A DNA stretch of 64,000 nt from Cyanidioschyzon merolae (lineage: Eukaryota), in the NCBI GenBank assembly GCA_000091205.1, contig AP006496.2; one strand, 5' to 3'. Every line of letters begins with the position of its first letter. Position 1 is the stretch's first letter. Made by a program: the position numbers and the translations under genes. Shown piece by piece: positions 1 to 60,846 of this stretch. Under the pieces are notes generated by a model. That model saw only the letters and a list, made by a program, of their open reading frames with translations. It ran no database searches and was not told where the DNA came from.

Positions 1-535
1 CTCCAGGAACGTCCTCGCCTACCGGCACAATGGAGTGTATTCGATTTCGAAAATAAGTGGATGCGCTGGGGTGCACACATCAGAACGTCGAAATGGAGGC
101 GAAAGTTCGAGGACTTCTTGAATTGATGAGTTCCACCACAGGTAACGGACACGTGGAGTGCGTGAACCGAGACTTGCACGCCACGAATTATATGAGGCGA
201 TGTGTTGTGCTGATGACGAGACTTAAAGAGCTGACGCCATCCAGCTTTGTGGAGCAGCCTCTCAGGCAGGAATTGCGCCTGGATGAACTGAAGCCGATAG
301 CAGGTGAGCGATCCAAAAAGGCTGGGTGGTGTCAGCACGAGGGTATCCATTTCATCCACATGACCGTAGAACATTTTGCGTTTGACTTACATACATAGGT
401 TCTATTCTGGAGTGACAGAAAGAGCTTGTGGTTGGCGATAACTCTATCCCAGTTCGTGGCAGACGTTATCTTCGGGCACCCGTGCTTGGTACGCGTCTTG
501 CGACGTTCTAGTTGATCTTGAAAGCGCTGCTTGCA
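1..535 (+). mobile_element. Copy C of the Fanzor/TnpB-like element; 3' portion only, truncated by the window start. It holds the C-terminal RuvC-III region and the conserved 3' tail.
   Basis: ORF 57..398 aligns to the C-termini of copies A and B (VEME...AKVRGLL...VNRDLHATNY versus VNRDFNAAINI; tail FVEQPLRQELRLDEL versus FMGQPLKVELYDTKL). The conserved tail motif ttgatcttgaaagcgctgcttg at 512-533 matches B 28219-28243. Confidence 0.6.
57..398 (+). pseudogene. Degenerate TnpB/Fanzor C-terminal remnant. RuvC-III has decayed to NRDLHATNY, and about 40 aa are deleted relative to copies A and B.
   Basis: Amino-acid alignment to copies A and B across the zinc-finger and RuvC-III region. Confidence 0.55.
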
Positions 536-587
536 CTGAATGGAGTGCGCCCCTGCGGATGCAAACGTGTACCTGTGCATGCATCGA

Positions 588-790
588 CGTTCATACAGTG
601 CACGCATCGCTATGCATACGTTCATACAGTGCACACATCGCTATGCATACGTGTCCGTGCACGCATCGCTATGCATACGTTCATACAGTGCACGCATCGC
701 TATGCATACGTTCATACAGTGCACGCATCGCTATGCATACGTGTCCGTGCACGCATCGCTATGCATACGTGTCCGTGCACGCATCGCTGT
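588..790. repeat. Minisatellite of alternating 31-bp and 28-bp units (gcacgcatcgctatgcatacg + ttcatacagt or tgtccgt), about 7 copies.
   Basis: Direct reading: the unit starts at 600, 631, 659, 690, 721, 749 and 777. Confidence 0.85.
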
Positions 791-8588: not shown

Positions 8589-8620
<32 letters not shown>

Positions 8621-11559
8621 ACAACACCATCCCGAGTGTCGGCAAATGTGCGATTGGCGCGTCCACTTGGACGTGCTGGGAGACGCTGTGGCAAGCGCTG
8701 CCTTGGTACTGGACATGGCTGACGCGAGTCTTGGAAAACGCTGCGCTTGGGAGCAGCGGATCGACTGCGCCCAGCACGCGGTACGCGATCACGCCTGCAC
8801 TAAGCATGGTCACCAGCGGTGTCGTTGTACGCGTCGCCCGTTTCATTCAAGTGGTACTGGCGAGTGCGCTGCTCGAGCTGACGCCCTGTGCAGAGAGCGC
8901 AGGCGCCCAGTCGGATGATGCGCGGGATCCACCGCGTGACCCAGACGCATGGATATGGGCACCAGAAATGACGGCAACGACAACGGTCGACTGGTGGGCA
9001 GCACACACCCAGCGCGCACTGCTGTTACACGCGATTGGCCCGTCGAGTGAGCGCCTCGCCGCGTTTCTCGAGCTGGTGCTTCCGCAAAACCAGTCTGGTG
9101 CTGCTGGTAACTCGACTGGTCTGCTCTGGTTTGTTCCAGCGTCACTGCAGGAGGCACACGCGCACCTCGTTGCCGATATGGTGCGTCTCTTGCATCAGGT
9201 CGAAGGCGCTGCGACGGTCCATCGTTTCTTGACGCGGCTGACGCCTCTCCTTGGAGGACGCTCTGAATACCTGGAAAGCTGGACGGGCATTCGGGCCTGT
9301 CAACGGCGTTGGTCGATCGGATTTCTCACTCGACTGGTGTTTTTGGCGAAACTGCAAGAGCCGGTACGCATACCTGGCAACGTGCACGCTCCCAGAGGCG
9401 TATCAGCGTCCGAAATCCACTGCTGCGGCAGCGACGAATGCAGCGAGACTGCTGACGCTTACGGAGCGCTGGGCGAGTCGTCGGCAAACGCTCTGTGTAG
9501 CGACCAGGAGGCAGCACTGCGACTGGCGGCCGCGTTGCAGCATCTTCTGACACAGACGCTGCTGCATGGACTGGTAGCCTCGCCGCTGCTTTGGGCCTCG
9601 GAACAGGCCGGCGCTCGTGAACGACCGGCCAGTCGCCTATGGTCGAGCATGGAGCCGCTTGTGCGCGCCCTTTGCCAGAGCGGCGATGTTGAAGACGAGG
9701 ATGCAGGAGCAGCAGCAGCAGCAGCAATGCCGTCGTGGCCGCTCTTTCTGGCGCGGTATGCAGCACGCTTCTGCAACGGGCTGGTGCGGCATCCAGCGAC
9801 AAGCGTAGCAACATCGACAACAATAGCGGCTGCAGCACCGCTGACGCATGTGCGGCACCTCTGGCTACCGTTGCTGGCGCGTTTGCGGCAGCTGGTGCCT
9901 ACAGCTTCGGCTGCGACGGTTAACAGCGAAACAAGCTGGCGCCGGCACCAGGTGTCGACGCTGCTGGCCAAGCTGGTAGACGAGCTGGAGGCGCTGCTGA
10001 CAAGTGCGCTCGCCTGGAATCATATGTGGTTGCAGGGGCGGCGTGCGGCAGTCACGGGTGATGAAACACCTGCTCTGTCGCGAGCTGCTCTGCAACTGTT
10101 CCAGTACCTCGTGGAGTTTGCTGGTATTCTTTTGGTGTTGTGTGCGCGCCTTTTGCGGGTACCAGGGCGCGCTCCGTTCTGGTCGCGAGTGATTCGTCTT
10201 GGTCGTCGAGCGCTGGAGGAGTACGCAAACATCGTTGCTGGTCAACGGCGGCAACTGCTACAGACAGAAACGTCCTATGCGCCTGGTAGGTCGCGTTCCC
10301 TGGAACACTTGCGTTGTGTCTGGATCGCTACGGTATTGCGAGGTCTCGCCCAGATGGATCTAGTGCCTAACGATAGCTACTATGCGAGTTTTCGGCGACA
10401 CTTGATTGCGGCAAGCCTCGCCCAGGATGCCCTGGATGCGCTTGTACTGGGTCTATGGCCTGGTTTGTCACCGACTTTGTTGCAGCAGCCGGTCGGCGAG
10501 AGCACGGCTGCCAGGTCCGAACGACCAGCGGTTGGTGCTTGTGTTCGCGAGTCGGATGCCGCTGCTGAGGCGACTGCGTTGCTCGCCCTGCTCGATTGGT
10601 ACTGTCGACCGGAGACGCTGTTCCCTGCAGGCACTGCTGCTCTGCAGCGACTGGAACGTTTTCAACAGGAGTGGCTAAGCGATCTGTGCAGCCGGTGCCT
10701 AGCCCAGGCGCAGTCCGAGCGTTGTGTGAACCTGTTGCAGCGCTGGCTCCAAGGTCGGCTTTTGACGTGTACCCGTCAGTCGTGCTTGTCGCATCTCAGC
10801 GGTGCTGTGTATTACGCAACGATGGCGAGAACGCTTGCCGTTGCCTGGTGGTCCGGTTGCATGCGCCACGTTGCTGTGCGTCTGAATCACGCAGGTTCAC
10901 CATCGATGACGACGACGACGACGACGACGCCAGAACAGCAACAACAACAACAACAACACAGGGCGGCGTTGCGCCCTGCAGACCGAGTGGCGACGGAAGT
11001 GATCAGCGACCAGTGCTCGGGCCGACGATTTGCACAGCGTTTTCGCAACAGCGTCGACTTGGCTGCTGCTCTAATGGAGTGGCTCGCGGCAAGCACCCGA
11101 GTGGATGCCCCCGCTCAAGCGACATGCGAGGAGACGTTGGCATTGCTGCTGGAAGCGCTAGCTGCACATGTCAGTGCCGGTTCATGTCCACATTGCGGTG
11201 ACGATCCAAGTCCGGCATCGATATCGTCTGACGAGCGCGTGCAGTTGCTACGTCGTCGACTGGCGGAACAGCGAGCACGCTCTGCCTGCGCAGCGGTACA
11301 CGCGGTATGGACGGATCATCTGGAGCGACTCGCTCGCAAGGAAGCGATGGACGCCAAGTTGTTTACCCATCCTAGTTGTTGTCGAAACTGGCTGGTGATA
11401 CAAGTCAATGACGTAGTGGAGAGAGCGGCTTGCTGGCGTCGGCGACCCGGTGATATCTGGCGGACCGCTGGACCTAGCGTCTTCGATGGAATGAAAGACG
11501 CTACGACGACGACGAGGACGCCACCGCCATGGTTGTGCTGGTCTGTACCTGAACGCTAA
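1045..11559 (+). CDS. Giant low-complexity protein of 3,504 aa, rich in Ala/Ser/Leu/Arg, with a SANT/Myb-like domain. No other recognisable catalytic domain.
   Basis: Uninterrupted 10.5-kb ORF starting at a true ATG. SANT signature WTPAERRLFFAELDRW...W...IFSKAIPSRCGYQCSNFY near 4.17-4.35 kb. In-frame homopolymer runs: polyT (aa), polyQ, polyA and polyS. Confidence 0.6.
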
Positions 11560-12745: not shown

Positions 12746-14731
12746 ATGCTCACCGGCTGGACCGTGCACTCGCCGACGGTTCTGAGCTGGGTTCTCGTCG
12801 GGTTTCACGCCAAACATGGACACCAAATTGAATGTGCAGAGTTAGCGGATGAGCTGTCGGTGAACTGGCAAGTGAACCAGCCAGAAGAACGCTCCGGAGC
12901 TTCAGCGCAGAACCTCAGCAATGACTGGCTTCGCGAGGTGGCCGTGCGAGCGCTTCCCGACGGTGCCCATGAACGCGACCACGACATCGTGTACTTCACC
13001 GTTCGACACTGCGTCACTGTCGACACGTTGTACGGTGTAGCTTGCTACCGACAGCGTCAGGTGGACTGCAGTCGCATCGCTAGCGCTGAGGAGGCTGCTG
13101 CAACAGCCCGAGGTCTCGTCCAAAAGTCTGTGGTATTGTTGAGTCGCTGGCCTCTGTATGCGCTTCTAGCGAGTCGACTAGAGCCGGTGGTTGCCAGTTA
13201 CTTTGCGAAACATAACTTTGGGCAGGTAGACTGCTTCCGGACCTTGGTTACGACGCTGAATGAAGAGGTAGCGGCTGCATTGGGCGACCCTGAAGTGCAA
13301 CGACTGCCGGTATCGACACCAGTGCCAGTGCAGCGACTACCAGCGTGCCTGGATCGCTACGTCTTTGGCGACACGTGTCTCCAACAGCTGGTGACGCGGC
13401 TTCGACGGGACTTGTTGCGCCTGATCAAACTCGTTTTATTAGAAAGGCGCGTTTTGGTCGTTGGGTCACCAGTCGAGCTCGTGGCTAAGGCAGTGCTTTC
13501 GCTGGTCAGCGTTTTCCCGGCCGAGTGTCTGGAGCCGCCACCGAACTCGGGGCGGGACGCTGCACTTGACCTAGCGACGTGCTGTACACTAGCACAACTT
13601 CCTTTTGGTCTGTTCGACCTGTATGGAAGCACGGGCGTGATTCGTGTTGAACCGTATGTGCCGCTGGCGTCTCTACAACCAACGTTAGCCGAACGAGACG
13701 CTGATACTGCTGCTGCCACAACAACGCGCTGGATCGTTGGGGTATCTACACCTGTCGGTCGACTATTTGCGGATGCTTGTCGGTCTGCTGGGGTCTTTGA
13801 ACGCTCACCGGTGCGATCCCTATTCGTAACAGGGCGCTCGGCGTCTGCGCAGACACCACACTCGGTACCTGAGTCGATGTCTCCGGAGCGCAGCGACACC
13901 AGGCCAGCCAAGGCTTCGTGGCGGCCGATGAACGCCTTCCCGCAGCCGCCAGATGCACTGGTGCACCTTGAGCGAGGTCGGGTCTATTTCACGCCGGAAC
14001 TCGCGTCACTTTTAGAGCTAACTCGTTCAGAGAAACGTTTCATAGATGAGCTGGTCCATGCGACTGCACGCGGAGCACTGAACGAGTCAGCAGTGCGAGC
14101 ACGCCTTCAATGGTACATCGTGAAGCTTGCCTTGATAGCTGCAGTGGCTGGTGATGATGCCCCCATGCCCGCTGAACAGCAACCTGCTCTGATCGATGAA
14201 CTAGGTCTCCCGTTTTTCCAGCACTGGAATCGTCATACAACGCATTTTCGACGCTGGCACGCTTCATTGCATAGGGCACATGCGACGCTGCGACGCAACG
14301 CACTGGGACATGTGTTGCGGTACGCGTCGAGCATGCCGACTGCCGTCGATGAACAACAGCAACAACAACATTCGATGCGCGCCTCCTTCGAGGAGCTGGA
14401 CGCGGGGCTGGGGCTGCATTCGCTTCGCCAGGCTTGGATGCGCTGGTGGCGCTCCGCTACCTCCACGGACGATACTCGACGGCAGTCGTCGTGGAGAGTG
14501 CATCACGGAACTGCGGTCACTCGAGTCGAGAGCCGTGGAGCCAGCGATGCTTGGCAGCGCTCCTGGGCACTGCCGTCCATCTCCGCGGGTACCATTGCCG
14601 ACGAAGCATGGGCGTCATCTGGCGAAGCGTCAACGATTCCGCAGGCGAAAGCGCACCTGATGACGCCAGCGGTTGCCGCTGCCTTCACGTCGACGGATAT
14701 CACGTTATTGCGGGATCGCTTGTCGCCCTGA
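12746..14731 (+). CDS. AVL9/DENN-domain protein, with uDENN and cDENN regions.
   Basis: VLVGFHAKHGHQIE (uDENN-like) and KLVLLERRVLVVGSPVELVAKAVLSLVSVFP (cDENN-like). First in-frame ATG is at 12746; the ORF track's M at 12698 is GTG. Confidence 0.6.
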   Translation: MLTGWTVHSPTVLSWVLVGFHAKHGHQIECAELADELSVNWQVNQPEERSGASAQNLSNDWLREVAVRALPDGAHERDHDIVYFTVRHCVTVDTLYGVACYRQRQVDCSRIASAEEAAATARGLVQKSVVLLSRWPLYALLASRLEPVVASYFAKHNFGQVDCFRTLVTTLNEEVAAALGDPEVQRLPVSTPVPVQRLPACLDRYVFGDTCLQQLVTRLRRDLLRLIKLVLLERRVLVVGSPVELVAKAVLSLVSVFPAECLEPPPNSGRDAALDLATCCTLAQLPFGLFDLYGSTGVIRVEPYVPLASLQPTLAERDADTAAATTTRWIVGVSTPVGRLFADACRSAGVFERSPVRSLFVTGRSASAQTPHSVPESMSPERSDTRPAKASWRPMNAFPQPPDALVHLERGRVYFTPELASLLELTRSEKRFIDELVHATARGALNESAVRARLQWYIVKLALIAAVAGDDAPMPAEQQPALIDELGLPFFQHWNRHTTHFRRWHASLHRAHATLRRNALGHVLRYASSMPTAVDEQQQQQHSMRASFEELDAGLGLHSLRQAWMRWWRSATSTDDTRRQSSWRVHHGTAVTRVESRGASDAWQRSWALPSISAGTIADEAWASSGEASTIPQAKAHLMTPAVAAAFTSTDITLLRDRLSP

Positions 14732-16436: not shown

Positions 16437-16851
16437 CAGCTGCACGCGAACAACTGCAGGCGCAGGTCGAGCCGGTTGTGCGTTTCCGTGAGGACTCCCA
16501 TTGGGCGTTGCTGCGTGCTGCTCAGGAGGTTGCCCAAAACGACGCTCCTCATCAACACCGTCGTCACTGCTGCCGCTCGCCGCTGTACTAGCGTAACACG
16601 AACAGCGCCGACGCTTCGGAGCAACCACGCCCGCGGGCGCTCCGCTGACGCTCCAACGGTGCCCAGGTTGTAGGCGTTGCAAGGTACACACGACGAAAAC
16701 CATACCGGTGTTTACGCCAGAGTCGAGCGTCACGATGTGCAACTTTCAGCAACACTTATGCGCAGTAGATAGTACGTACGGGCGCCGCAGCCAAACGCCT
16801 TTCGAAAGTCGAACGACGTCGGGCGTGTACAGTAGCGGCGACCGGCGGCCT

Positions 16852-19189
16852 AGACGTAACGCTTCCAGCTGGTGTGCAGACGCCTCCCAGCGTTTCTCGG
16901 CGGGCCACGTACTATTTCTTCTAATTTCGTCTCATATACTTCTACTTTTCGAGATTGTCCAACAAAATTCCCTCTTGTCTACTCTGGAGGTCTGTTCTCC
17001 AGCACTGCCCATCTCCGGATATTGATAGCGGCGTTAAAGTCACGATTCACAAAATCCATACGTCTCCTGCAATCTCTGGTTGTACTTTCTGATGCAAGTA
17101 GTCCACGAACTTTCGCTCTCCTTTCAATTTGCTCTTCCGTCAGCGGTTCGTGCTTTGCTATTTCCGAACGGCTCGTTGGCACTTTTCCATCTCCACTGTC
17201 TGAAGTGTACAACCCATTTCATGGTGTGTATAGGACGTTCGGAACTCATGTACAGGTATCGTGAAGAAACGCCTTGCGCACTCTTTGTATGTTCTTGCCG
17301 TTGGAACTGGCGCAGTCCCTTTTTTCGACGCCGAGCACCCTGCTCTGTACGCTACTACGAGCCTCTGACTTTCATCCTCCTTCAGGGCGCTCAACTGATT
17401 GAAAAAATTCGCGAACGCCCGCTGCTTCCCACAATACAAGTTCATTCACAAACGAGCCCACCGGGGCTTGGTATACTCCTCCCACAGCGCCTCCCAATGA
17501 GCAGCGCGAACTTTCATGAATTTCCGAAAAGCTTCAAAGTCCGCTCCTCGGCTAGTCACCTCGCTCAAAGCTTCCATGTGATCCTTCACTCCTGAATTCC
17601 ATTTCTCGATTTTCTTCCTTGCATTCATTATACCGGATTCTCGATAGTATCTTGGTCTCGAGAACCTCAAAAGACGCATGTCTCTCTAACGAAAGTTACC
17701 ACCAGTACTATCTTCCGCACGCTTCGGTGCTGCGATGGTGATGATATTCGTATTCCCGGGGTCCGCGCCAACGACAAAGTCGTTATCTTGTACTTTCTGT
17801 GCCGCAGGATCCGCCTTCTTGTTTTCTTCATGCTTCGTCGCGCCAACGACAAAGTCGTTATCTTCCACTTTCTGGGTCGCAGGATCCTCCTCTTTCTTTT
17901 CTTCATGCTCCGCCGCGTCAACGACAATGTGGTTATCCTCCACCTCCTGCGTCGCAGGATCCTCCTCTTTCTTTTCTTCATGCTCCGCCGCGTCAACGAC
18001 AAAGTCGTTATCCTCCGTCTCCTGCGTAGCAGGGTGCGCCTCCTTCTCATCTTCATGCCTCGCCGCATCAACGACATGGTCGTTATCTTCCACCTCCTGC
18101 ATGAGAGGATCCTCCTCTTTGTTTTCTTCATCCTTCGTCATGGGCGCAGTCGAGGGCGGAATTGGACGATCTTTCTTCAACCGCCGATAGTGTATACACA
18201 TGGCTACTCCATCGGTTTCGATCAACCCAGTAAATACCTTTTGTTTGGTCTCTTTGAGACGTTTGAAATTGAAGATATTCTTCCAGTACGTCTCCCGGTT
18301 ATCACCGGAGAACTCCTTGTTGCTAACATTGAACTCCGGACAGATCTCCTTCATGATGCCATGAAGGATCCTGGAGTCGATACTCACAAAATGTGACTTG
18401 ATGTTGCACAACGGAACCACGTTGAACCGCTTACCCATTAGGAAAGCCTTCTGTCTCTCCCACTCTTCATTTTTCCTCACTCAGCTTCATCTCCGCCTTG
18501 CGTTCGAGTTCTCGATTCAGGAATACGAAATAGAGCAGGATGAGTTGATAGCATCTTTTTTCATCTTTTTTGAACTCTGATATTTTTTCTGTTGGATTCG
18601 CCAGCCCCATGACTGCACGGTGCTCTTGTATAACCGCACGGATTACAGAAGCCTCATTCGTGCTCTCGTTTGGCGCCTTCTTGTCGACAAATTCGACCTC
18701 ATCTTCATACTTTCGATCGTTCGTGATGCCATTGATAATCGCCCATATTCCTTTGCGAGACAGGCCCGGGTAGAGTGGAAACACGGTGCGTATTATGAAA
18801 CGTTCGAGGTTCATTGTCAAATGGTTCTTCAGGTTCGTGATGTGCTTCATCGCCCCGTAGCCGTAAATACCCCGGTCACCCTTGTATCGAGTACCGTTGA
18901 AGCTGTAAAAGGGATGTTTTTCGTGGGGGCCATGCACTAGCACATTTTCCCTCCGCGTTTTCTCTCCACCAAGCATCAGGTGTCGAATAAAGGTGATGTC
19001 GAAAAACTCGTCTGGAATCTCGACCGTTTCGATGTGCGTCACGTCTTTGTACATCTCCCTCGCCAAATGCATCAGCCCTGACGACGCCTTGACAATACTC
19101 TTGGAGTACGAGTCGACGCGTTTTTCGATAGCGTCTCGCAACTTTTCCCTGTACGGATCCTTGATATGGCCAAGAAGAAAGGCTCTCAT
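16852..19189 (-). pseudogene. Fanzor1-like (TnpB-like) RuvC nuclease gene, disrupted. Ruv[18 protein letters not shown], RuvC-II region IPVHEFRTSYTHHE, zinc finger, RuvC-III VNRDFNAAINI.
   Basis: Main ATG at 19189. One frameshift near KAEMKLSEEK/EWERQ. Nonsense TAG where B has CAG (GGNFR*RDMRLL). Frameshifts at PRWARL/MNLYCG and after MEKCQR. Nonsense TAG where B has TTG (RPPE*TRGNF). The coding tail ...RGNFVGQSRKVEVYETKLEEIVRGPPRNAGRRLHTSWKRYV* is conserved with B at the amino-acid level. Confidence 0.75.
17745..18125 (-). repeat. In-frame 75-bp coding tandem repeat, about 5 copies, encoding roughly [25 protein letters not shown], inside the Fanzor-like ORF just upstream of RuvC-I.
   Basis: Period 75 nt (for example 17877 and 17952). 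Copy B has about 2 units (27.16-27.26 kb). Confidence 0.85.
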
Positions 19190-19399
19190 CACCTTCTCGT
19201 CGTACAGTCGTCTTTCTTGCCGCCTTCGACGTAGGACCTCTCCCCTTCGGTTCTTTTTCTTCTCCTTTTCTTCTGGGCTCGGCACTGTTTTTCGTTTTTT
19301 CTGGCAGCCAGCGATACTGGGCCTCCAGGATCGTCGACTTGCTTTTTCATAGCTTTCCTTTTTCAGTTTTTTTAAATGAACCCGCTGTGAATGCTTCGG

Positions 19400-19406
19400 T
19401 TATATA
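19400..19406 (-). promoter_or_regulatory. Conserved TATATAA box about 50 bp upstream of the uORF ATG (19350) of element copy A.
   Basis: cgcagTATATAAccgaagc in A aligns to cgcggTATATAAcagaagc in B (25857-25863) within the conserved 5' end. Confidence 0.45.
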
Positions 19407-20799
19407 CTGCGAAAAAACACTTGGCCAGACTTGTTTGAGGGTTGAAACACCAATGAACTGAAAACTATATTTTTGTTCGACTCCGACGCAAATACAACTT
19501 TTACAGCTGAACAACACGCTCCTGGTCAGCATCGCGGTTCCTTTCAACGGCGGCATGTGCATCGCGTCAGTTGACTGCCTGATCTCCGAGATGCGTTCAT
19601 TAAGCGCAATGCGTCCATCGCACGAGACGCCACTCCAGTCGATGAAGGACACGTGTCCGACACCCCGCATTGGCACATGCGTGTTCGCATCGCATTGCAG
19701 CCAAACTAAAGTATCGTAGATAGGAAACTCACGTAGAACGATCTCTTGCTATAGACGCTGTCGCTGGTGCCGAAGCTACTGCCCATCGCAGTACCGCCTG
19801 GACATACATGGAAATGTTGGGACCTAACGCGATACCTCGTGATGCTTCTATCAAAAGCGTAGCGTTCTCTGCGGCTTACCGTTGTGTGGATGACGTATGC
19901 ATCACTCTTCTCACTAGGAATTTCGTTAGTTTTATTCATCGTAACCAAACTAGGTACGGTGGGATTCCTGAACACGGACATACGTTTAATGCCGATGCTT
20001 GTCACGCATGCTACACTGACGCTGGAATGAGGAACTGACCTGAATTGTGCTTCTATCCTGCGTCATAGGCTGGTACTGATGACCGTTCAAGTCATTTCCA
20101 TGCTGCTGTCGTTGTCTAACTTATGGTGCCTGCTTCGTCCTCCGGATCCGGTGATCTTGGCAGAGGCATAGCACACTCGACCGGCCCCCTGCTATCGGTT
20201 TCAGCTTCTCCTTGTTCACCTCTGGCCTGGGAGGTTCCCCCAGAAAGTTGGACCGCGTCAGCTCCGCCGGTCGCGCGTTCATCACCATTCATCATCTGAT
20301 ATTGATGGCGTTTTGTCTGAAACGCTCGTGATAGAGCTGAGGTCAAGAAGCGATCAATCTTGACCGACGCTATCAAACGAGCGGTACCAGAAGCTGAGGG
20401 CTGCAGCCGGCACCAGGTGCTCTGATGCCTACATGCTGGCCGTGAATAGTGCGTGACGAAGTCGCACAGCATGCCACGGTTTCCTAGTACGTAAACCAAG
20501 CACGTATTCGAAACGTTCGGGTTCAGTGTGATGACGAGTCGCCGCTACGGCATTCTGGGAAAATCATCCGAGTGCGCTATGGTTGTTCGAACATCGAGCA
20601 TCATCACGTGTATGGGTGCGTTTCACTGCACGAGTTGCAACGATCATCGAATCCACCATCATCCAAAAGTGACGAAAATTTACAAGCGTACCGGGCTCGC
20701 ACCTCCAGGTCAGGACGTGCCCACCAGCACGCAAACAAATTTCGTGCCCTGCTGTGCTTTCACCAAAAACGAAAGGAAACATGCGTTTCCTCGACCAGG

Positions 20800-24406: not shown

Positions 24407-25065
24407 TCAAGCACCAGCGCTGTAACAATGCTGGCTGGGATCCGAGCCCAAGATGACGTAGGTGTAAATTTCGTCGTTCAGCATTTGTGCGGTATACGAT
24501 GCGATAAACTTGTACCGACCAGAGGTCAGCGCTGAACGGAATACCCGTTCCATCTCTGGAACCACCAGCATTGCAGCTTCAAAGGCCTCCCGTCCAAAGA
24601 GGCCCTCGCCGCCGTATGCATACGGACTCGACCAGTTGAAATAGTGCGCTGGCAACTTTGTGGCATGCGCAGCGCCCATATAGTCGGTGCTGGTCCAGCC
24701 GCCCACGGCGAGCGCTGACTCGACAGCTGCCCGTCCGAGCGCACTGCAGTTGCCAGCGGCCACGTCTGCTATCGGACACTCCACCATGTTATCCACGACG
24801 TTCGCAGCACCAATGATCAGTCCCTTGTTCAGACACAGGTCATGATCAAGGTCTGCAAGCGCATTCATGATGGTAAAGTCGTATTGCGACACGTTCAGGG
24901 CCATAGCGTCGGTCTCGTTGATGTAGATGCCACCGAGCGCCCTGCTCGGCACCCGCAGGATACTCTCTTCGAGCGTCTCGAGGTTCAGCGGCGTAACCAC
25001 TGTCGCAGCACAACGAGACAAACATCCCGCAAGCCCCCACAGGCTAAGAAAAGCGAAAAGAAGCC
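24407..25065 (-). CDS. Secreted Cys-containing protein with a signal peptide and N-glycosylation sites; unknown family. Paralog of the gene at 30544..31191.
   Basis: Signal peptide MRAWLLFAFLSLWGLAGC. Shared C-terminal motif LGSDPSQHCY and overall about 40% identity with the paralog. ATG at 25065. Confidence 0.55.
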
Positions 25066-25856
25066 ACGCTCGCATATTAATCAGAACAGAGCCACGTTCC
25101 AGGAAAAACAGCAATGTCTCTATCGTGGGTGGTGCTGCATTGGGGATCAAGGCGCACCGCGTGTGCGTGCGTCTGTGCGCGGAGCGCCCTGCGGCGAACA
25201 GGCCCCGGTGCAGGCCCTGCGAGACGCCGCGGTGGCACCACCGGCGCACGCCTCGGGAGCCGGCACACTCGATCCGTGGCGATCGAACAGGCCCAGCGGC
25301 AGCGCCAAAATGGGCGTTCGGGACGTCGGCGGCGCCACCAGCATCAGCGATCGGCGCCAGATTAGGAAGCGATGCGTGCCGGCGCGCGCTGTTTCCGACG
25401 TTCCAGGCGTCGACGCGTCGATGTCGGTGGTGGTGGCTGCGGGCGCCTGCATCTCCACTTAGGTGAGGGCGGTACTGAGATGGGCAGGAGCGTCGGCACC
25501 AGCGACATAGCATAGAGCAGGAGTGCATTCTACGTGAATTTCCAATCTAGGACACCTGATTTCAGCTGCAGTGCGATGCGAACACGCATGTGCCAATGCG
25601 GCTTCGGACACGTGTGCTTCATCGATCGGAGCAGCGTCTCGTGCAGTGCACGCATCGCGCTCGGTGAGCGCACCCCGGAGATCAGGCAGTCCATTGACGC
25701 GACGCGTATGTCGCCAATGAGGGGAAACGTGATCTTGATCAGTAACGTGTAGCCGCAATGTAAAATTGTAATTTCATTGAGTTCGTATCCAGGTATAGTT
25801 TTTATTTCAATTGTGCTTCACCCTTAAAACAAGCGTAGTCAAGTGTTTTCTCGCGG

Positions 25857-25863
25857 TATATAA
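25857..25863 (+). promoter_or_regulatory. Conserved TATATAA box 56 bp upstream of the uORF ATG (25919) of element copy B.
   Basis: Aligned with the copy A TATA box within the conserved 5' end. Confidence 0.45.
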
Positions 25864-26079
25864 CAGAAGCGTTCAAAGAACGTTCTTTTTCAAAAAAAAA
25901 TCTAAAAAAAGGAAAGTTATGAAAAAGCAAGTCGACGATCCTGGAGGCCCAGTGTCGCTGGCTGCCAGAAAAAACGAAAAACAGTGCCGTGCCCAGAAGA
26001 AAAGGAGAAGAAAAAGAACCGAAGGGGAGAGGTCCTACGTCGAAGGCGGCAAGAAAGACGACTGTACGACGAGAAGGTG

Positions 26080-28177
26080 ATGAGAGCCTTTCTTCTTGGC
26101 CATATCAGGGATCCGTACAGGGAAAAGTTGCGAGACGCTATCGAAAAACGCGTCGACTCGTACCCCAAGAGTATTGTCAAGGCGTCGTCAGGGCTCATGC
26201 ATTTGGCGAGGGAGATGTATCGCGACGTGACGCACATCGAAACGGTCGAGCTTCCGGACGAGTTTTTCGACATCACCTTTATTCGACACCTGATGCTTGG
26301 CACAGGGGAAGCGCGGAGGGAAAATGTGCTAGTGCATGGCCCCCACGAAAAACATCCCTTTTACAGCTTCCAGGGTAATCGATACAGCGATGACGGAAAT
26401 ATTTACACATGCGGGGTAATGAAGTACATCACGAACCCGAAGAACCATTTTACAGTGAACCTCGAACGTTTCATGATACGCGCCGTGTTTCCACTCTACC
26501 CGGGCCTGTCTCGCAAAGAAATACGGGCGATTATCAATGGCATCACGAAGGATCGTAAGCATAAAGATGAGGTCGAATTCGTCGACAAGAAGCCGTCACG
26601 CAGGAGCACGAATGAGGATTCTGTAATCCGTGCGGTTGTACAAGAGCACCGTGCGGTACTGGGGCTGGCGAGTCCAACGGAAAAGATATCAGATTTAAAA
26701 AAAGATAAGGAAAGATACTATCGCCTCGTCCCGCGATATTTTGTGTTTCTGGACCGAGAGCTCGAACGCAAGGCAGAGGTGAAGCTGAATGGGAAAAATG
26801 ACGAGTGGGAGAGACGGAGGGCTTTCCTAATGGGAAGCGCTTCAACCTCGTTCCAATGTGCAACATCAAGTCACATTTTGTGAGTATCGACTCCAGGATC
26901 CTTCATGGCATCATCAGGGAGATCTGTCCGGAGTTCGATATAAGGGAGACAGAGTTCACCGGTGAAAACCGGGAGACATACTGGAAGAATATCTTCAATT
27001 TCAAACGTCTCAAAGTGACCAAACAAAAGGTATTTACTGGGTTGATCGAAACCGATGGAGTAGCCATGTGTATACACTATCAGCGTTTGAAGAAAGATCG
27101 TCCTGGTCCGCCCTCGGCGAACCACGAAGATGAGACGGAGGCGGTTCCTGCCACGTAGAAAGTGCAGGAAAACGACTTTGTCGTTGGTGCGGCGAAGCAT
27201 AAAGATGAGGAGGAGGAGGATCCTGCGACGCATGAGGTGGAGGATAACGACTTTGTGGTAGGCGTGAACCCCGGGAACACGAATATCATAACCATCGCTG
27301 TATCCAAGCGTGCAGAAGATGGTACTGACGGCAACTTGCGTCAGAAGACATGCGACTTTTGAGGTGCTCGAGAGCAAAATGCTATCGAGAATCCGGTATC
27401 ATGAATGCAAGGAAGAAAATTGAGACATGGAATGCAGTAATGAAGGATCACCCGGAAGCTTTGAGCGAGGTGACGAGCCGCGGCGGGGACTTTAACGCTT
27501 TTCTGAAAATCATGAAACTTCGCGTTGCTCGTTGGGATGCGCTGTGGGAGGAGTATACAAAGCCTCGGTGGGCTCGTCAACGTATGAAACTATACTGTGG
27601 TAAGCGGCGCGCGTTCGCGAATTTTTTCAATCAGTTGAGCGCCCTCAAAGAGGATGAAAGTCAGAGGCTCGTAGTAGCATACGGAGCAGGGCGCTGGAAG
27701 ATCCAAAAAAGGACTACGCCAGCTCCATCGACAAGAACGTATAAGGAGTGTGCACGGCGTTTTGCTACAATACCTGTTGATGAGTTCCGAACATCGTATA
27801 CACACCATGAACGGTGATGTACGCTCCAGAGAGTCGAGATGAAAAAGCGCCAGAGGAGCCCTGAGGATATAAAAAAGTACGGAGCGCAAACGGAAGAGCA
27901 AATGGAAAGGAAAGCGAAAGTTCGTGGACTGATCGCATTGGCGAGTACAATCAATGGCAAGAAACGTATCGAATTCGTGAACCGAGACTTTAACGCCGCC
28001 ATCAATAGAAGGAGATGTGCGGCGATGGAGACGAGACCTGCGGAGTTGACAAGAGAGAATTTTATGGGGCAACCTCTCAAGGTGGAATTATACGATACGA
28101 AGCTGAAGTCAGTAGTAGGTGGCCGGTCGAGAAAGACGGGGAGGCGTCTGCATTTCAGTTGGAGACGTCTCGTCTAG
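26080..28177 (+). pseudogene. Fanzor1-like (TnpB-like) RuvC nuclease gene, disrupted. RuvC-I has mutated to GVNPG (D to N). RuvC-II IPVDEFRTS, RuvC-III VNRDFNAAINRRRC.
   Basis: Main ATG at 26080, overlapping the stop of a 53-codon basic uORF (25919..26080, TGATG). A 1-bp indel at AFLMG/KRFNLV. Nonsense TAG at VPAT*KVQ where A has CAG. A 1-bp deletion at RQKT/MRLL. TGA at HHER*C where A has ATGGGT. Elsewhere continuous where A is broken. Confidence 0.75.
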
Positions 28178-28724
28178 GACGAGTTCGCCGCCACTGCTGT
28201 ACACCGCTGGCGGCAGCGTTGTTCTTTTGGAAAGCGTTTGTTGTTCGTGGTGCTCTTGCCGTTTGTCTCATGCGCGTTTGAAGGTGCGAATTTAGCAAGT
28301 CGAGTTGGGCTCGTCACGGGTGTGTGTGCACCGCAGGCGCGGGCAACGTGGTACACGACGCTCGTACCTCCACGGATGCTTCCAAGTGAACCACTGGTGC
28401 CGGACTGGTGTTCCTCTCAGAGATAGTGGTTTAACCGTTTCCGTTTCCCCGCGGTTGCTGAGCGCAGAAGGGACAGCTTTGCTGTACGAATGGACGAATA
28501 TCGCTTCGAGGTGCACTGTCCAGCATACCGGGCATAGAGGCTGATAGATCGGGCGCTTTGGTATCGGTGCGTTGCGAAACCGCGCAAGGTTCAAGAAGCA
28601 TGCAGTCCGCTTTACTTTCTGGATTTTTGGCACCAGTGCCCATATACGGTTGCTCGAACCGAATACAGTGCTTTCGCTAGGCGCTAGCGGCAACGGAGCT
28701 CAATGATCATGCGCTGCTCCAGTG

Positions 28725-29156
28725 TCAGAGAGAAATGGAGCTGGTGTGCTGATTCGGGTGTATTCGCTGAAGTTTTGATTTCTTTCCCTTGTGATGCGCA
28801 CCAGCTTTTGCGGACATCTTCCGCGCCCGCTTCCTTTTCGTATCTCGCATATCGGCCTCGGAATACGCCGGTGCCGTGTCTCGCCTCAGCTGCGGTGTCA
28901 GCAGCGGAAGGATGTTGATGACAGCGTTGGAGCCCGCGTTTCGTTGTTTCCCACTGCTGTTGGAGCATTTTACGCAGAGGCGCAAGTTCCTATCTACGAT
29001 TCGCTTTCCTTTTTCTGCTTCATTGTATGGAGCGTCGGTGTGCTCTTCACAGCCGTCATACGTGACTGTGGTGAGGTGTTTTCGTATATCCATCACTAGA
29101 CCCTTTCTCCTCCTCCTCCAAGGTTTTTTTGCGATGTGGCGCATGAACGCTTGCAT
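28725..29156 (-). pseudogene. Relic of a second, divergent TnpB-like family: zinc finger plus degenerate RuvC-III. Possibly extends to about 29.85 kb.
   Basis: RIVDRNLRLCVKCSNSSGKQRNAGSNAVINI follows the C..C-(x)-NAAxNI layout. It is 17/30 identical to the relic at 60.7 kb. Weaker upstream similarity LLAVVYEKKSHTC...GTAPAGSRP to Fanzor LVVAYGAG...RTTPAPSTR. Confidence 0.4.
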
Positions 29157-30543
29157 CAGCGCTCGGTACGTGTCCTCGACTGGTACAGATGGCTCTTTTC
29201 GATGTTTTCATCAGGCGCCGCGCCCGGTGCTGTGCCCAGTGATCACGGCTCGCGTCAGACGATTCCCTCGGCGAGTACTCTGTCCACCGCACATGCAAGC
29301 GAAGGCTGTTCCACTCGATACGGGATTAGCGGCACCCGATATCGTCCGTAATCAAACAAGTGCGGGAAGGGTAATCCAGTTTAGAGAAAAGTTGAGAACA
29401 TTCGATCCGTCTCCGTTCCCTTCGCGCACAGCAATGACGCACTCTCTAAAGGGAGCGGTCGCTTCGATGACGCAAGTCGCACTCTGAATCCAAGACGATT
29501 TTCCATGCGAACACACGGGACGAGAGCCCGCTGGAGCAGTTCCCGCAAAATGTTTCGTACAGGTGTGAGATTTCTTTTCGTAGACGACCGCTAAAAGAGG
29601 CGGATTTGTGTTTTTCGAACGGAATCGATAAATTGACATGACAAGTTCAGTGGTCTTTTGGCAAGAGTTTTTGATCAAGAGGTCATGGTGCGACGTCGAG
29701 GATGCTTCTGCGTCATTCCAGCGGGGCGAGTTGCCGCGCGCACGAGTTTCCATGCAGGATATTGATCGAAAACTTGAAGAATACATGGTTTGAGCGTGGG
29801 GCACGTAGGGATCGGAAAAGGACGGAGGAACACAGGTATGCATTGGATAACGATATCGGTTATTTCACGAACCCTCGCTCGAGGGCGTCGCAAATCATCG
29901 CGATTCAACGGACGTCACGAATTCCAGCTCTGTACTGTATCGAAAGAGCCTCCCAAAGTAAATATGGCCGAGAATCACTGACCTACATATCCATCCGTAC
30001 GCCCGTATTGTTGCGCTTAGAATACCGCGGTTGTAGACCCAAGAACGCGTTCGGAATAGAGTCGGAAAGCAGGAGCAGAGTGAGCAGTTCAGTGCTCCAG
30101 TTGAGAGCCTGGCACGCGTATGAGCTCGACGCGCGCATCCATCGCCTGCCGCCGTGCACGGCAATTTGCCAGCGGCGGAAATCATCGCGCCATCGACAGG
30201 AGCCACTGTGCGCGCTGAACGACGTCGCCTTGCTGTGGGCGCGCCTCGACCCGAACGCGTCGGTGTTTGCTTCACAAAATCGCGTGCAGCAAAGGCATCG
30301 AAAGACGGGGATTCGGAGCGGCTCATGAGCGCGCGCACCATGGAATGCGTGACACGTGTCCCACAGCGGCGCGGTGACGTGCACGTGCCGAATTTGGCAG
30401 CGCTGTGTGTTGTATTGGGATGTGGATGCGGTGCGAAACGCTCGGTGTGTATCGACACGAACGCATTTGCATGTTTTTTTGCGACTGTAGCAGATACTTC
30501 AAGGCTAACCTGTGTCTTCGACTACAAGTCGTTTATTATTCCG

Positions 30544-31191
30544 ATGGTTTCGAACAGGTCTGCGTTTAGGCTAGCCGTGCTCGCTCTTGCGCTGATACTC
30601 TTTACTATGATCTGGGACGCTGCTGTCTATCGGGGAACCTCAGCGCTGCCGCTGAGCACCCAGGTACGCGCTGCAGAGAACAGAACGCACCACCTCCCCG
30701 ATGCCGTTGCAGCGGCGCTCAACTACACGCAGTTCGAGTACACGCTCGCAAACTCACTGTATAAAATCAACCCGCATATATGCCTGAACTATGCCTTGTC
30801 AGTTGCGGCAGCGAACCTGGCGGATCTCCTCACCTACTGCACGCCAGATCAGGTTGGGAATAACAGCTGTAGCGCTCTGACGCCCGGTGCTATCGCTCGG
30901 ACGCTGCTCGCTGCGGGATGGACCAGCACGAATATCCAGCTCGTGGACCTCGCAGCCAAGGTGCCAGCAAGGTATTTCAATTGGTCGACCAGTGACGGGC
31001 TCTCGGGTCTGCAAGCGTACCACGTCGGTCTTCAAGCTGCACCATACGTTGTGAACCAACTGCGGCCTTACCTACATAGTGGACAACTCAACCTGGTTGG
31101 GGTAGGTGCAGTGGCTCTCCGCACAGACTACGTGTACGCGATGGTTGCCCTGGGCGGGGATCCATCGCAACACTGCTACGAAGCGAGCTAG
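30544..31191 (+). CDS. Secreted or membrane-anchored Cys-containing protein; paralog of 24407..25065.
   Basis: N-terminal hydrophobic segment AFRLAVLALALILFTMIW. C-terminus LGGDPSQHCYEAS. ATG at 30544. Confidence 0.5.
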   Translation: MVSNRSAFRLAVLALALILFTMIWDAAVYRGTSALPLSTQVRAAENRTHHLPDAVAAALNYTQFEYTLANSLYKINPHICLNYALSVAAANLADLLTYCTPDQVGNNSCSALTPGAIARTLLAAGWTSTNIQLVDLAAKVPARYFNWSTSDGLSGLQAYHVGLQAAPYVVNQLRPYLHSGQLNLVGVGAVALRTDYVYAMVALGGDPSQHCYEAS

Positions 31192-34091: not shown

Positions 34092-34894
34092 CTGGAGCAA
34101 ACATAGGTGCACGACTCGAGCGCGTGGGTACTGCCGTCTGGGGTGCAGCAGCGTTCGGCGGCGGGTTGCCGCCCTACACGCGGCAGATTTGTTGTGCGGT
34201 GCGCGTCACTCGGGGTTACGCAAACGCGTTAGGCTGTGCACTCACTGAGGCACGTTACCCAGCACAGAAAAGACTGACCCAGTGGTCGCGGAGGTCGAGC
34301 TCGGACCCGGGCGCAAGCGCTCGCGCCGCCAGCAGCCTTGCGCCTTGCCTCTTTGCCCGACGGGTAGACCAGTGTCGGGGAACTAGGCTTTGCGCGTTTT
34401 TAACGGGGCGCTGTGCCCAGCGCGCTTGGCTTGCGGCGATGGATCAACGGAACGCTATGAGTGAAGTGCTTCTGCATATGCTGGTAGCATCTCCGAGTCT
34501 CATGCGCTAGGCGTGTGCGTGTTTTGTCGGGATTCTAGTATGCAGCAGCTATCGGTGCTGTGGCGCCGGCGTACATCCAGTGACATCGCCCATCTTCCTG
34601 TTGTTGTTCCTGCAATGCATCGCTGGATTCTCGGTCACAGGAGCGAGGAGATGCTTTACAGCCGGGAATACGCGCTAGTGTGGCGACACACAGCTTTTGC
34701 GCCGCCTGTTCGCCGCATCAGCGACGACGTGCACACCAGACCTCAGAGACCGACACAAGTCCTTTGACGCGCCGTTGATAAAAGCTGCCCAAAATCTGGA
34801 CAGTGCTCCATGGCCAACCCGCGTTGAATCACTGCAGCACCGTTGCGGCCAACGTGAAAACACCACAGTTGTCGACTATCTTTTATCAACAGAC

Positions 34895-35827
34895 CTAGTT
34901 TGCCTGCGTTCCCCGATGACTCGCCAATCTGGAGGGCCAAAGTGGCCCACCAGCCGCCCATTCTGGATTGTAACCTTTCCGCAGATACTCGGCATGCATG
35001 CGTTCCGCGAGATAGCGCGCGCGTTGTTCGTAGAGGCGCGCATCTGCCCAGTAGGTAGCCGGGTGCAGAAGGCGCGAATCGAGCCCGGGAATCGCACGCG
35101 GCACCCGCAATCCGAAAATCGGATCTGGCGCGGACACCTGACTCGTAGGGATCGCATCCGTGGCGATGGCACGCACGATTGCCCGCGAAACCTCCAGGTC
35201 CATGCGTGCGGCACCGTCGGCAGCGCCGCCGCCCGCCCAACCGGTATTCACCAGGTACACCTGGGTGCCGTGACGCTCCAGTTTCTCATTGAGCAATTGT
35301 GCATAGACTTGACCATTCAACGGCATGAACGCTGCTCCAAAACAGGTGCTGAAAGTGGCGGTCGGCCTCAGCACACCACGCTCCGTTCCAGCAACCTTGG
35401 CAGTGTACGCTAGAATAAAATGATAAGCAGCCTGGAGTGGTGTCAACACAGACACCGGGGGCAAGACGCCAAAAGCATCGCATACGAGGAAAATGAATGC
35501 CTTGGGCGGTGGACCCTGGCGTGATGCCTCCCACTGCGGTATATTGTGGATTGGGCAGGTCGCTCGGGTGTTCTCGGTTTTGGAAGCGTCATCAAACTGG
35601 ACAACGCCGTGTCCATCCACGACGACGTTTTCGAGAATCGTGGACGGCTTTCGAATTGCACTGTAAAGAATCGGTTCCTTCTCCGGCGACAGGCGGATCA
35701 CTTTGACGTATATACCACCCTCCATGTTGCGGATCGCCGTTTCGTCCCAGGAGTGCTCGTCGTCCCCGATGAGTTTCCGCTCGGGGTCCGCGGATAACGT
35801 TGATTTTCCGGTTCCCGACAAGCCGCT
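34895..35827 (-). CDS. pckA: Phosphoenolpyruvate carboxykinase (ATP), exon 2.
   Basis: GLSGTGKSTLSADPERKLIGDDEH kinase-1a and downstream PEPCK-ATP motifs: ENTRATCPI, DAFGVLPPVS, TAKVAGTE, NTGWAGG. Confidence 0.85.
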   Translation of the reverse strand, partial: SGLSGTGKSTLSADPERKLIGDDEHSWDETAIRNMEGGIYVKVIRLSPEKEPILYSAIRKPSTILENVVVDGHGVVQFDDASKTENTRATCPIHNIPQWEASRQGPPPKAFIFLVCDAFGVLPPVSVLTPLQAAYHFILAYTAKVAGTERGVLRPTATFSTCFGAAFMPLNGQVYAQLLNEKLERHGTQVYLVNTGWAGGGAADGAARMDLEVSRAIVRAIATDAIPTSQVSAPDPIFGLRVPRAIPGLDSRLLHPATYWADARLYEQRARYLAERMHAEYLRKGYNPEWAAGGPLWPSRLASHRGTQAN

Positions 35828-35901
35828 AGATTTCACGCAATGGTTAGTGTTCCGTTTTGCTGAATCGGCCTGCTGCGTGCTTCTGCGATGTTCCAAACTT
35901 A

Positions 35902-36720
35902 CGCAAAACAAATAGTGTCCGGATTCGTGTCCGATAGGGAGCGCGTCGCTGCGCAGTGTAACGGCAAAATGCCTTTCAGCGGCAGCATTCCGTTCATGAT
36001 GGTGAACACCGATTTTTTCATTTCACCCGCGTAGCTCGTGCCAGCGATAAGCGCCAAGCGACGCTCGAAACCGAGCACAATAAATATATCCGAGTTCAGT
36101 CCCATTGCCCGATAATGTCGATTGCGCAAGCCGCTAGCGTAAACCACGGTAAAGTCCGGCTCGCCGAAGCTCGCTGCCTCCGCCGGACTCGATAGCGGTA
36201 TAAATATGTTGCTGGCGAAGGCATGATGCCAGGCGAGTTCGGTCACGACGCGGAGCTTGAGACGGTTCGGTCCGCTGGATACGAGCCCGTCGAAGACGAA
36301 CAGCTCAGGCAAGGCTGATAAATAGTTGGCAACCTGTTTCTGAAGTTCGTCGACGATTGTTCGCTCTATTGGCTGGTTGACCTCGCCCCAGTCGATGCGT
36401 TCCGCTAGGGGCGAGCCCTCGCGACGTTCGATGTAGCGGTCACGCGGCGACCGGCCCGTGAACTCTCCGGTATCCACGCAAAGTGCACCCGGTGGGTCTC
36501 TCGCTTCAACGCCCTCACGTCGTTGTAACGCCAGTGCTTTCGCCTCGGAGAACGGCAGGTTCCGGTGAATGGCACCAGGCGCACGCTGGAAGCCTAGCTG
36601 CCTCACCAAGAACTGCTCTACGGTTTCCGGAGACGTTCCGCCGCTGCTTAGGCGGCGTTGCCAAGTGCGAAGCAACCGTGGACCGCTTCTCAAGCTGGTT
36701 CGAAGGCGAGGAAACCACAT
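35902..36720 (-). CDS. pckA: Phosphoenolpyruvate carboxykinase (ATP), exon 1, with an Arg-rich N-terminal presequence. The intron is 35828..35901.
   Basis: GEFTGRSPRDRY, TSYAGEMKK and LPLHCAA motifs. The donor gc|GTAAGT at 35901 and acceptor tctAG| at 35828 restore the frame, giving ...ICFA-GLSGTGKST. Confidence 0.8.
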
Positions 36721-60519: not shown

Positions 60520-60846
60520 ATGGAAACGGAGCAGGGCATCGATCGAAGCCTTCACCACCCGCCAGAGGCATGCACCGAGCGCTGGGGCAAGCGTTCACGC
60601 GCCACAGGGCGCGCCCCTCGATGGGGAAGCGGTATGTTGAATATCCAGCACCAACAGAACACAGTCGAGTGTGGGCGCTGCAAACAGCACATCGAGGCTG
60701 AATGCAAGGAAGATGAAAATCGGCAGCGAAGCGTTGATCGCAACGTGCGCGTGTGCATGTCGTGCGCGAACTACAGCTGGAAGCAGCGAAATCGGGACTT
60801 GAAAGCCACCATCACGATCCGTCGAGCGCCAAAAGCGTATCAGTAG
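60520..60846 (+). pseudogene. Isolated TnpB-superfamily C-terminal relic: CxxC...CxxC zinc finger plus RuvC-III. Same divergent family as 28725..29156.
   Basis: ECGRCKQHIEAECKEDENRQRSVDRNVRVCMSCANYSWKQRNRDLKATITIRRA follows the canonical C..C-x20-C..C-x8-RD.xA.I.I layout. Confidence 0.5.

Follow-up and report, generated by a model that had tools for sequence, protein, structure and literature searches.

The window analysed here, a 64,000-nt stretch of Cyanidioschyzon merolae contig AP006496.2, contains at positions 27990-28245 a segment in which conservation runs across the end of a nuclease open reading frame (ORF) and on past its stop codon. What was this tail for? A sequence-only reading had proposed that it encodes an omegaRNA (fRNA) scaffold, as in TnpB/Fanzor systems. 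Our studies show that a dead Fanzor1 element, copy B, ends in this segment, and we consider it probable, on balance, that the segment holds the eroded scaffold of an ancestral omegaRNA. Fanzor1 is a eukaryotic relative of the transposon nuclease TnpB, and Bao and Jurka are said to have described, in 2013, the Fanzor1 gene as carried in Tc1/mariner transposons. In the active ancestor, the last ~130 nt of the element would have been transcribed with the nuclease mRNA and would have served as the omegaRNA scaffold, with GCAGUAGU, ~22 codons ahead of the stop, at one end and ...GGCGUU, 61 nt beyond it, at the other. The first ~15-20 bases of the flank would have been read as the guide. That the nuclease bound such an RNA and used it as a guide, and that the RNA was made at all, is what we infer from comparing sequences.

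The window is eukaryotic, intron-poor and 57% G+C, and includes genes for Avl9, glucosidase II beta, an ABCG transporter, Hint and PQ-loop proteins. Its gene content shows that the nuclease is encoded in a eukaryotic genome. A scan of metagenome contigs yielded 80 related loci from ~7 samples; after duplicates had been merged by their flanks, ~46 groups were left, and 38 distinct copies were aligned. The loci of the window are themselves among the 80, at 98.5-99.6% identity (L006, L008, L014 and L017 correspond to copy B, and L077-L079 to copy A). The copies in the window are as follows.

25650..28238, plus strand: copy B, a decayed Fanzor1 element (self-BLAST, BLAST to the 80 loci, left- and right-end alignments)
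25984..28177, plus strand: nuclease frame of copy B (three-frame translation, ORF list)
28175..28177, plus strand: stop codon of copy B, TAG
16794..19613, minus strand: copy A, a decayed Fanzor1 element (self-BLAST, three-frame translation)
16794..16849, minus strand: tail of copy A past its stop codon, which lies at 16852-16850
90..337, plus strand: copy C, an old, divergent C-terminal nuclease fragment (67.6% nucleotide identity)
20176..20310, minus strand: copy D, a short, divergent C-terminal nuclease fragment directly upstream of copy A

Copy B extends from the start of the homology common to all copies to a right end after ...AGCGTT. Its frame is damaged by at least two frameshifts and two in-frame stops; the RuvC-I motif reads GVNPG (D to N), while VDEFRTS and NRDFNAAIN are kept. 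Copy A has several frameshifts and stops and keeps GADPG, EFRTS and NRDFNAAINI. Three-frame translation of A and B gives a K/R-rich nuclease N-terminus that resembles a nuclear localisation signal. The two copies are the same gene in ruins, and both are pseudogenes. Since their ORFs are broken and the helices described below are partly eroded, neither can work. Immediately ahead of the RuvC-I motif, the ORF carries a 75-nt (25-aa) acidic tandem repeat (27115-27267 in B; 17760-18140, minus strand, in A), with two units in B and ~5 in A; metagenome proteins have as many as 5 or more.

The identity of the nuclease emerged from its relatives. A protein search returned 194 of them, nearly all from JGI metagenomes and with the precomputed Pfam tag PF26935 (DUF8286). 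A second search, with the most distant match (P0120) as query, gave 143 proteins that are mostly intact and 600-730 aa long. From 35 members, including P0001 and P0004 of the window’s family, a family profile (hidden Markov model) was built. When compared with PDB, this profile matched the Fanzor1 proteins of Parasitella parasitica (PpFz1, 9cf0, E 7e-15), Spizellomyces punctatus (SpuFz1, 8gkh, E 1.3e-11) and Guillardia theta (GtFz1, 9cer, E 8e-4). PF07282 was matched by 7 of the 35 members (best E 1e-5); the window’s family scores only E 0.23, and its sequence at the place of the zinc ribbon, between RuvC-II and RuvC-III, reads THHELGCx10C, with two His and two Cys. The RuvC motifs of the family consensus are GADPG, VDEFRTS and NRDFNAAINI, and the catalytic residues D398, E569 and D636 are invariant in the protein alignment of the relatives. 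The consensus ORF is intact, and its codon-position pattern is that of purifying selection in the source lineages. Pfam and NCBIfam scans of the window fragments gave nothing useful, and a single-sequence phmmer search against PDB found no match; the profile search alone succeeded. Based on the Fanzor1 matches in PDB, the presence of PF07282 in 7/35 members and the invariant D/E/D residues, the ORF is identified from its sequence as a Fanzor1/TnpB-type nuclease. The profile matches to Fanzor1 chains thus bear out the nuclease type named in the sequence-only reading.

Homology past the stop codon was present in all 38 aligned copies, and it runs for ~61 nt, up to ...GGCGTT (28238 in B, 16794 in A). 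BLASTN alignments to other copies stop at 16791-16795 in A and mostly at 28240-28244 or 28212 in B. The tail consensus consists of TAG, GGCG(C/G)G-loop-C(N)CGCC, ACTACTGTACAC, CGYTGGCG and a terminal hairpin ending in GGCGTT, followed by unrelated DNA. Per-site diversity, which is 0.14-0.40 in the tail, reaches 0.65-0.75, the random level, past ...GGCGTT. This shared boundary is far beyond chance. Homology for ~60-70 nt past the stop had been claimed for three copies. It is confirmed in A and B but not in C, where coding homology ends at 337 and a tail match at 476-534, although ~2.8 standard deviations above shuffles, is below the best shuffle and is not significant. The end of homology had also been called abrupt. 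The alignment ends do fall in a narrow band, yet the edge fades over 6-12 G/T-rich bases, where the would-be guide starts.

28239..28250, plus strand: G/T-rich start of the flank, partly alike between copies, where the guide would begin

A match of the flank elsewhere, as between guide and target, had been suggested as well. The 20-mer that flanks B does have a 17/20 match at 8607-8626 (minus strand), but it is compositional and lies beside a (CTG)n tract, and we rejected it as a target; for the copy A flank, no match elsewhere was found. The (CTG)n/(TTG)n tract itself, at 8575-8626 (minus strand) inside a 3504-aa ORF, holds this sole 17/20 match. The right flanks of ~29 copies are rich in G and T and show a rhythm of three bases (TGT TGT TCG TGG TGC.. 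or GTT GGT GCG TGC TGT..). In the window, such flanks occur at 28239-28262 and 16793-16770 (minus strand), and several left flanks look alike. The G/T-rich flanks could reflect an insertion-site preference or something else. Directly past the copy C remnant, window positions 560-790 hold a tandem array of ~30-60 nt units (GCATACGTTCATACAGTGCACGCATCGCTAT...).

Does the tail have the structure of a scaffold? The consensus, with its intact reading frame, was taken as an approximation of the active ancestor. For its last 130 nt, the predicted folding energy is -60.4 kcal/mol (z -5.08); not one of 200 dinucleotide-shuffled sequences was as stable, and the minimum free energy and centroid structures are identical. 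The reverse complement folds at -38.3 kcal/mol (z -1.83). Of 28 tails of individual copies, 23 gave a more stable fold in the sense orientation than in antisense (Wilcoxon p 1.4e-4), a preference that agrees with the presence of several G-U pairs in the helices. The parts of the predicted structure lie in the window at the following positions.

28110..28116, plus strand: 5′ arm of the closing helix, CAGTAGT (codons ..AVV..), from the consensus fold; 90.6% of cells paired in 38 copies
28141..28171, plus strand: hairpin within the ORF, GAGGCGTCT ... AGACGTCTC, the tip of the rod (folds; 85% of cells paired)
28178..28192, plus strand: post-stop segment GGCGNN-loop-NNCGCC, degenerate in B (GACGAGTTCGCCGCC)
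28190..28204, plus strand: most conserved motif of the tail, GCCACTACTGTACAC, in B GCCACTGCTGTACAC (diversity, motif search)
28215..28238, plus strand: terminal hairpin variant 2, AGCGTTGTTC-TTTT-GGAAAGCGTT, with 9/10 pairs in B, reaching the right end
16839-16825, minus strand: core motif of copy A, GCCGCTACTGTACAC
16820-16794, minus strand: terminal hairpin variant 1 in copy A, GACGTCGTTCGA-CTT-TCGAAAGGCGTT

The predicted fold comprises a long rod, a linker and a terminal hairpin that abuts the flank. The rod is closed by GCAGUAGU, which lies in the ORF (codons E-A-V-V) and pairs with ACUACUGU in the conserved core. Next in the rod come GGUG/CGCC, GCC/GGU, GUCC/GGGC and AGAC/GUCU, up to a tip formed by the AGGCGUCU/AGACGUCU hairpin. 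The linker, ACACCGYUG, measures 9-14 nt. Two variants of the terminal hairpin exist, one of 11-12 bp (GGCGU-CGUUCGA-CUU-UCGAACG-GCGUU) and one of 10 bp (AACGUUUUUC-UUUU-GAAAGGCGUU). The hairpin is kept in both, with a 3-nt insertion that shifts the register and a G-C to U-A exchange; in L020 it is fully compensated (CGUUCUA/UAGAACG). The post-stop segment at 28178..28192 may form a local hairpin or, alternatively, may pair back to GGTGGCCGGTCC in the ORF. Standard pairs fill 81% of structure cells in the 38 copies, compared with 36-54% when partners are slid. The final 22-25 codons, which form a C-terminal extension not present in the relatives, contain the 5′ arm of the closing helix, and an overlap of ORF and RNA is therefore plausible. 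A helix of CGCCA with TGGCG around the core, suggested by a few copies, was considered and rejected: the CCCGACG variant disrupts it, and other helices with better support compete with it. One metagenomic copy (L036, 2374-2440) has, in place of the terminal hairpin, a perfect 15-bp palindrome, CCGGCGAGCACGCGC-TCGT-GCGCGTGCTCGCCGG, which takes in element sequence, as after fold-back repair.

Intact relatives also have structured tails. Eight look-ups gave loci L083-L093, whose proteins are all intact and 44-65% identical to P0120; P0120 in turn shares 38-47% protein identity with the window’s family. A DDE_3 (Tc1/mariner-type) transposase gene is found upstream on the same strand in 7 of the 8 look-ups, with no call in L083 and L090. 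The post-stop tails of these relatives are 170-215 nt long and end in a 30-nt repeat, GGTGTTCCACAATTCATTTTCATGAGTATA, beyond which the flanks differ. In L084 and L085 this terminal repeat has an inverted partner across the transposase gene. RNAalifold on seven of the tails gave two helices with changes on both sides in 6 of 12 pairs; these tails are only partly alignable to that of the window. By eye, an inner hairpin stays in place with unrelated sequences (AAGGG/CCCUU, CAGGG/CCUCUG and UAGAG/CUCUA), and a module of hairpin, ACUGUA, 6-9 nt and GGCGUCG is common to the relatives and the window’s family. These Tc1/mariner (DDE_3) Fanzor1 relatives (P0120-P0127, L083-L093) are therefore like the window’s family in belonging to the same protein family, in having this module in a tail that stops at the element end and in the structure of that tail, the compensatory changes being those of the relatives’ tails. 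They differ in being intact, with an upstream DDE_3 gene, 170-215 nt tails and a 30-nt terminal inverted repeat (TIR) of the form ...GAGTATA. In contrast, the window’s family has neither transposase nor TIR, its tail is 61 nt long and its ORF exceeds theirs by ~22 aa; the start of the closing helix falls approximately where the relatives’ ORFs stop. Between the DDE_3 and Fanzor genes, L084/L085 also carry ~13 tandem 9-nt units (CGTCTCGAC / CATTTCGAC) at 1737-2033.

Several observations weigh against a scaffold. Within-family covariation was not above shuffle controls (best 16/500, for percent paired; others not significant). Such an outcome is expected when dead copies differ mainly through neutral decay, and it falls short of a true negative. 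With RNAalifold, the 38 copies gave 4 pairs and -3.3 kcal/mol, and the copies’ own folds were no better than shuffles (z -1.76 for B, +0.45 for A). The z score of the terminal 130 nt is unusual (2/23 windows) but not unique, as another 130-nt window of the consensus ORF, the first past the acidic repeats (equivalent to ~27268-27400), has z -4.6. An Rfam scan of 25300-28500 matched no family, motif search and nhmmer revealed no ORF-less ‘ghost’ scaffolds, and there was no fully intact family copy among the matches listed. Tblastn with three DDE_3 proteins was negative in the window’s family, an inverted repeat between left and right ends scored equal to shuffles, and no consistent motif resembling a target-adjacent motif (TAM) was seen at the left end, which is ambiguous. 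Flank positions +1 to +6 are not fully variable: they are TGKTGT-like, with 84% G+T and a pairwise identity of 0.43. Identity is 0.31 at +7 to +12 and 0.24, the random level, farther out, so that the flanks are unrelated, as a variable ~15-21 nt guide 3′ of the scaffold would be, only beyond +12. Finally, there is no extra synonymous constraint: third-codon diversity is 0.24-0.25 in the last 190 nt and 0.24-0.36 elsewhere. Nucleotide identity between A and B declines in the 3′ direction, from 85% (25501-27259) to 80.5% and then 76.5% (27900-28196). The dual coding and RNA constraint that had been proposed for the last 40 codons is contradicted by this lower 3′ identity and by third-codon diversity that stays within the range of the ORF. 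As for structure across the copies, the consensus fold (z -5.08, on the sense strand) is in line with the sequence-only reading, whereas covariation does not exceed shuffles. Its proposal of an omegaRNA scaffold at the 3′ end of the ORF is likewise supported by position, by the Fanzor1 nuclease and by the sense-strand fold, but not by a TIR, a TAM or an excess of covariation.

With these results in mind, it could be argued that the tail had no function at all, having been conserved through recent descent from a single source, with the abrupt end as the mere edge of a repeat. Most of the variation among the copies does resemble neutral decay, both A and B are pseudogenes, covariation is not above controls, and A and B are less alike at the 3′ end than upstream. 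However, diversity is uneven. Mean pairwise diversity per site is 0.14-0.26 in the ORF, 0.34 in the first 15 bases of the tail, 0.137 in the core GCCACTACTGTACAC, 0.40 in the next 30 bases and 0.65-0.75 beyond the end. The core (also given as ACUACUGUACAC) contains ACTACTG, the 3′ arm of the closing helix. Its 15 nt have a diversity of 0.137 compared with 0.28 at third-codon sites (P = 0.0002, against 15 random third-codon sites), conservation this high occurs in only 11% of coding 15-nt windows, and its conservation matches that of first and second codon positions. Judged by these values, the tail is under selection, at least in its core. A functionless tail is also at odds with the strength and strand specificity of the consensus fold and with a hairpin-ACUGUA-GGCGUCG module common to relatives ~40-47% identical in protein. 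We consider this explanation improbable.

A second alternative is that the tail acted only in cis, as the right end of the element or as a 3′ UTR, providing DNA signals or hairpins for mobilisation or signals for the 3′ end of the mRNA, with no guide role. The sharp boundary and the conserved core would suit a terminal recognition site equally well, the hairpin at the left junction (25657) recalls elements that are recognised through terminal hairpins, the flanks show a G/T-rich preference like that of an insertion site, and there is no covariation proof of an RNA. Nevertheless, the sense fold is much the stronger, and its G-U pairs would be C-A mismatches on the other strand. The structure extends into the ORF, compensatory changes occur in the relatives’ tails, and inverted-repeat scoring and tblastn tied no mobilising enzyme or TIR to the window’s family. 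Moreover, the same region is the omegaRNA in every characterised Fanzor (PMC10432273, PMC10530073). Taken together, these points make a purely cis-acting end less likely than the omegaRNA scaffold that we favour, but it is the main rival.

How would such a scaffold compare with known systems? SpuFz1 is a 2.1-kb single-ORF element with 30-nt inverted repeats; its omegaRNA lacks a pseudoknot, and a guide of 14-15 nt comes after it (Saito et al. 2023, PMC10432273). More generally, fRNAs come from non-coding sequence on the 3′ side, next to the right end, their conservation at times reaches into the ORF, and Fanzors associate with Mariner/Tc1 and other transposons (Jiang et al., PMC10530073). Similar to SpuFz1, the window’s family is a single-ORF element of 2-3 kb with many decayed and partial copies. 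Its nuclease is homologous (profile E 1.3e-11), and its predicted RNA has two stem domains and a short linker, without a pseudoknot, and then a variable flank at the guide position. As the position, orientation and layout of the tail match those of the SpuFz1 omegaRNA, it would occupy an ordinary place among Fanzors. In contrast, neither the 30-nt inverted repeats of SpuFz1 nor its left-end CA(TA) motif was found in the window’s family. The SpuFz1 scaffold lies wholly past the stop, whereas the first stem here would begin ~65 nt inside the ORF, and ORF-less ghost omegaRNA loci, which occur for SpuFz1, were not seen. SpuFz1 is also proven experimentally, whereas the present family is known here from sequence alone. 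Bacterial IS200/IS605 elements with TnpB and omegaRNA (ISDra2) share the ancestry of an RuvC-type RNA-guided nuclease. In ISDra2 the scaffold is encoded at, and overlaps, the 3′ end of the nuclease gene, and the guide comes from the flank past the right end, as is proposed for the window’s family. The window’s family differs from ISDra2 in its eukaryotic host, in having no TnpA and in having no predicted pseudoknot, and its likeness to bacterial TnpB is detectable by profiles only (PF07282 in 7/35 relatives).

The left side of the element bears on how it spread. Homology common to all copies begins near 25650 in B, and three kinds of 5′ region are joined at about this point: a 690-nt repeat in the majority, a 200-450 nt segment that is common to A, B and L001 and distinct from this repeat, and unique DNA (L002, L028/L068). 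The ~690-nt repeat, present upstream in most copies, has a fixed start with a T-run and ATGACAAAACGTTTAC (for example L081 8333-9020, with equivalents in L004, L007, L018, L023, L034, L046, L052, L056, L070, L072 and L074). We considered it as a decayed DDE_3 transposase gene and rejected this after a negative tblastn search; as the 3′ end of a retroelement with zf-RVT-like motifs, it had no Pfam support. Exactly at the start of common homology there is a hairpin, GCGCTC-GGT-GAGCGC (25657-25671; the equivalent in A is near 19607, minus strand), of which variants with the pairing kept occur elsewhere (GCGCG...CGCGC, GCGCA...TGCGC, GCTCG-AGA-CGAGC). No TA was found at the right end of the window’s family.

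The T-run at a fixed point of the ~690-nt repeat in most copies invites the idea that the copies were retroposed or otherwise passive, for example from a processed antisense transcript whose poly(A) became the left T-run and whose 5′ end became the right end. The lack of TIR and transposase in the family and the resemblance of some left flanks to right flanks (e.g. L024) would agree with this. On the other hand, target-site duplications were not supported when matched and mismatched flanks were compared (permutation p 0.29), no domain, of a reverse transcriptase or otherwise, was found in the upstream repeat, in several copies a different 5′ region is attached at an identical position, and the consensus ORF is intact with a purifying codon-position pattern in the source lineages. 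We regard retroposition as most improbable. For the omegaRNA scaffold that we favour, the loss of transposase and TIR, the at least 38 copies, the fixed right end and the likeness of flanks at +1 to +12 bring to mind a guide-directed mode of spread, in which omegaRNA-dependent cleavage of guide-like sites was followed by copying of the element, an RNA-guided homing to new sites in a eukaryote without transposase. This is highly speculative, and we think it very unlikely. Among the metagenomic copies, truncated Fanzor elements also occur as head-to-head pairs with tails outwards (L040/L044 2580-3542; L041 1397-1685 and 3284-3559).

Further observations concern the surroundings of the copies. 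Copy B lies between inverted paralogous ORFs at 24407-25528 (minus strand) and 30154-31191 (plus strand), which are 373 and 345 aa long and signal-peptide-like, with no Pfam match. A 540-nt segment at 28939-29476 recurs in inverted orientation at 60263-60791 with 66% identity. Upstream of a metagenomic Fanzor copy, L011 228-743 is 92-93% identical to window 13500-13918, which is part of the Avl9 gene; after it comes a match of 86% to window 34323-34426. The arrangement results either from a chimeric assembly or from rearrangement in a related strain. The PEPCK ORF at 34895-35911 (minus strand) covers profile positions 217-464 of 465, that is, the C-terminal half only; it lacks the N-terminal half, perhaps owing to a frameshift, an intron or truncation.

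In conclusion, positions 16794-19613 and 25650-28238 should be annotated as dead mobile-element copies rather than as genes. If the tail is indeed an omegaRNA scaffold, the family would be a new Fanzor1 lineage of an intron-poor, GC-rich protist, one whose nuclease ORF has gained ~22 codons that reach into its own scaffold and which has lost the transposase and inverted repeats present in the relatives. The consensus, with its intact ORF of ~790 aa and 130-nt scaffold, could be revived and tested as a compact editor, and the intact relatives, with proteins of 600-730 aa and structured tails of 170-215 nt, are a ready comparative set.

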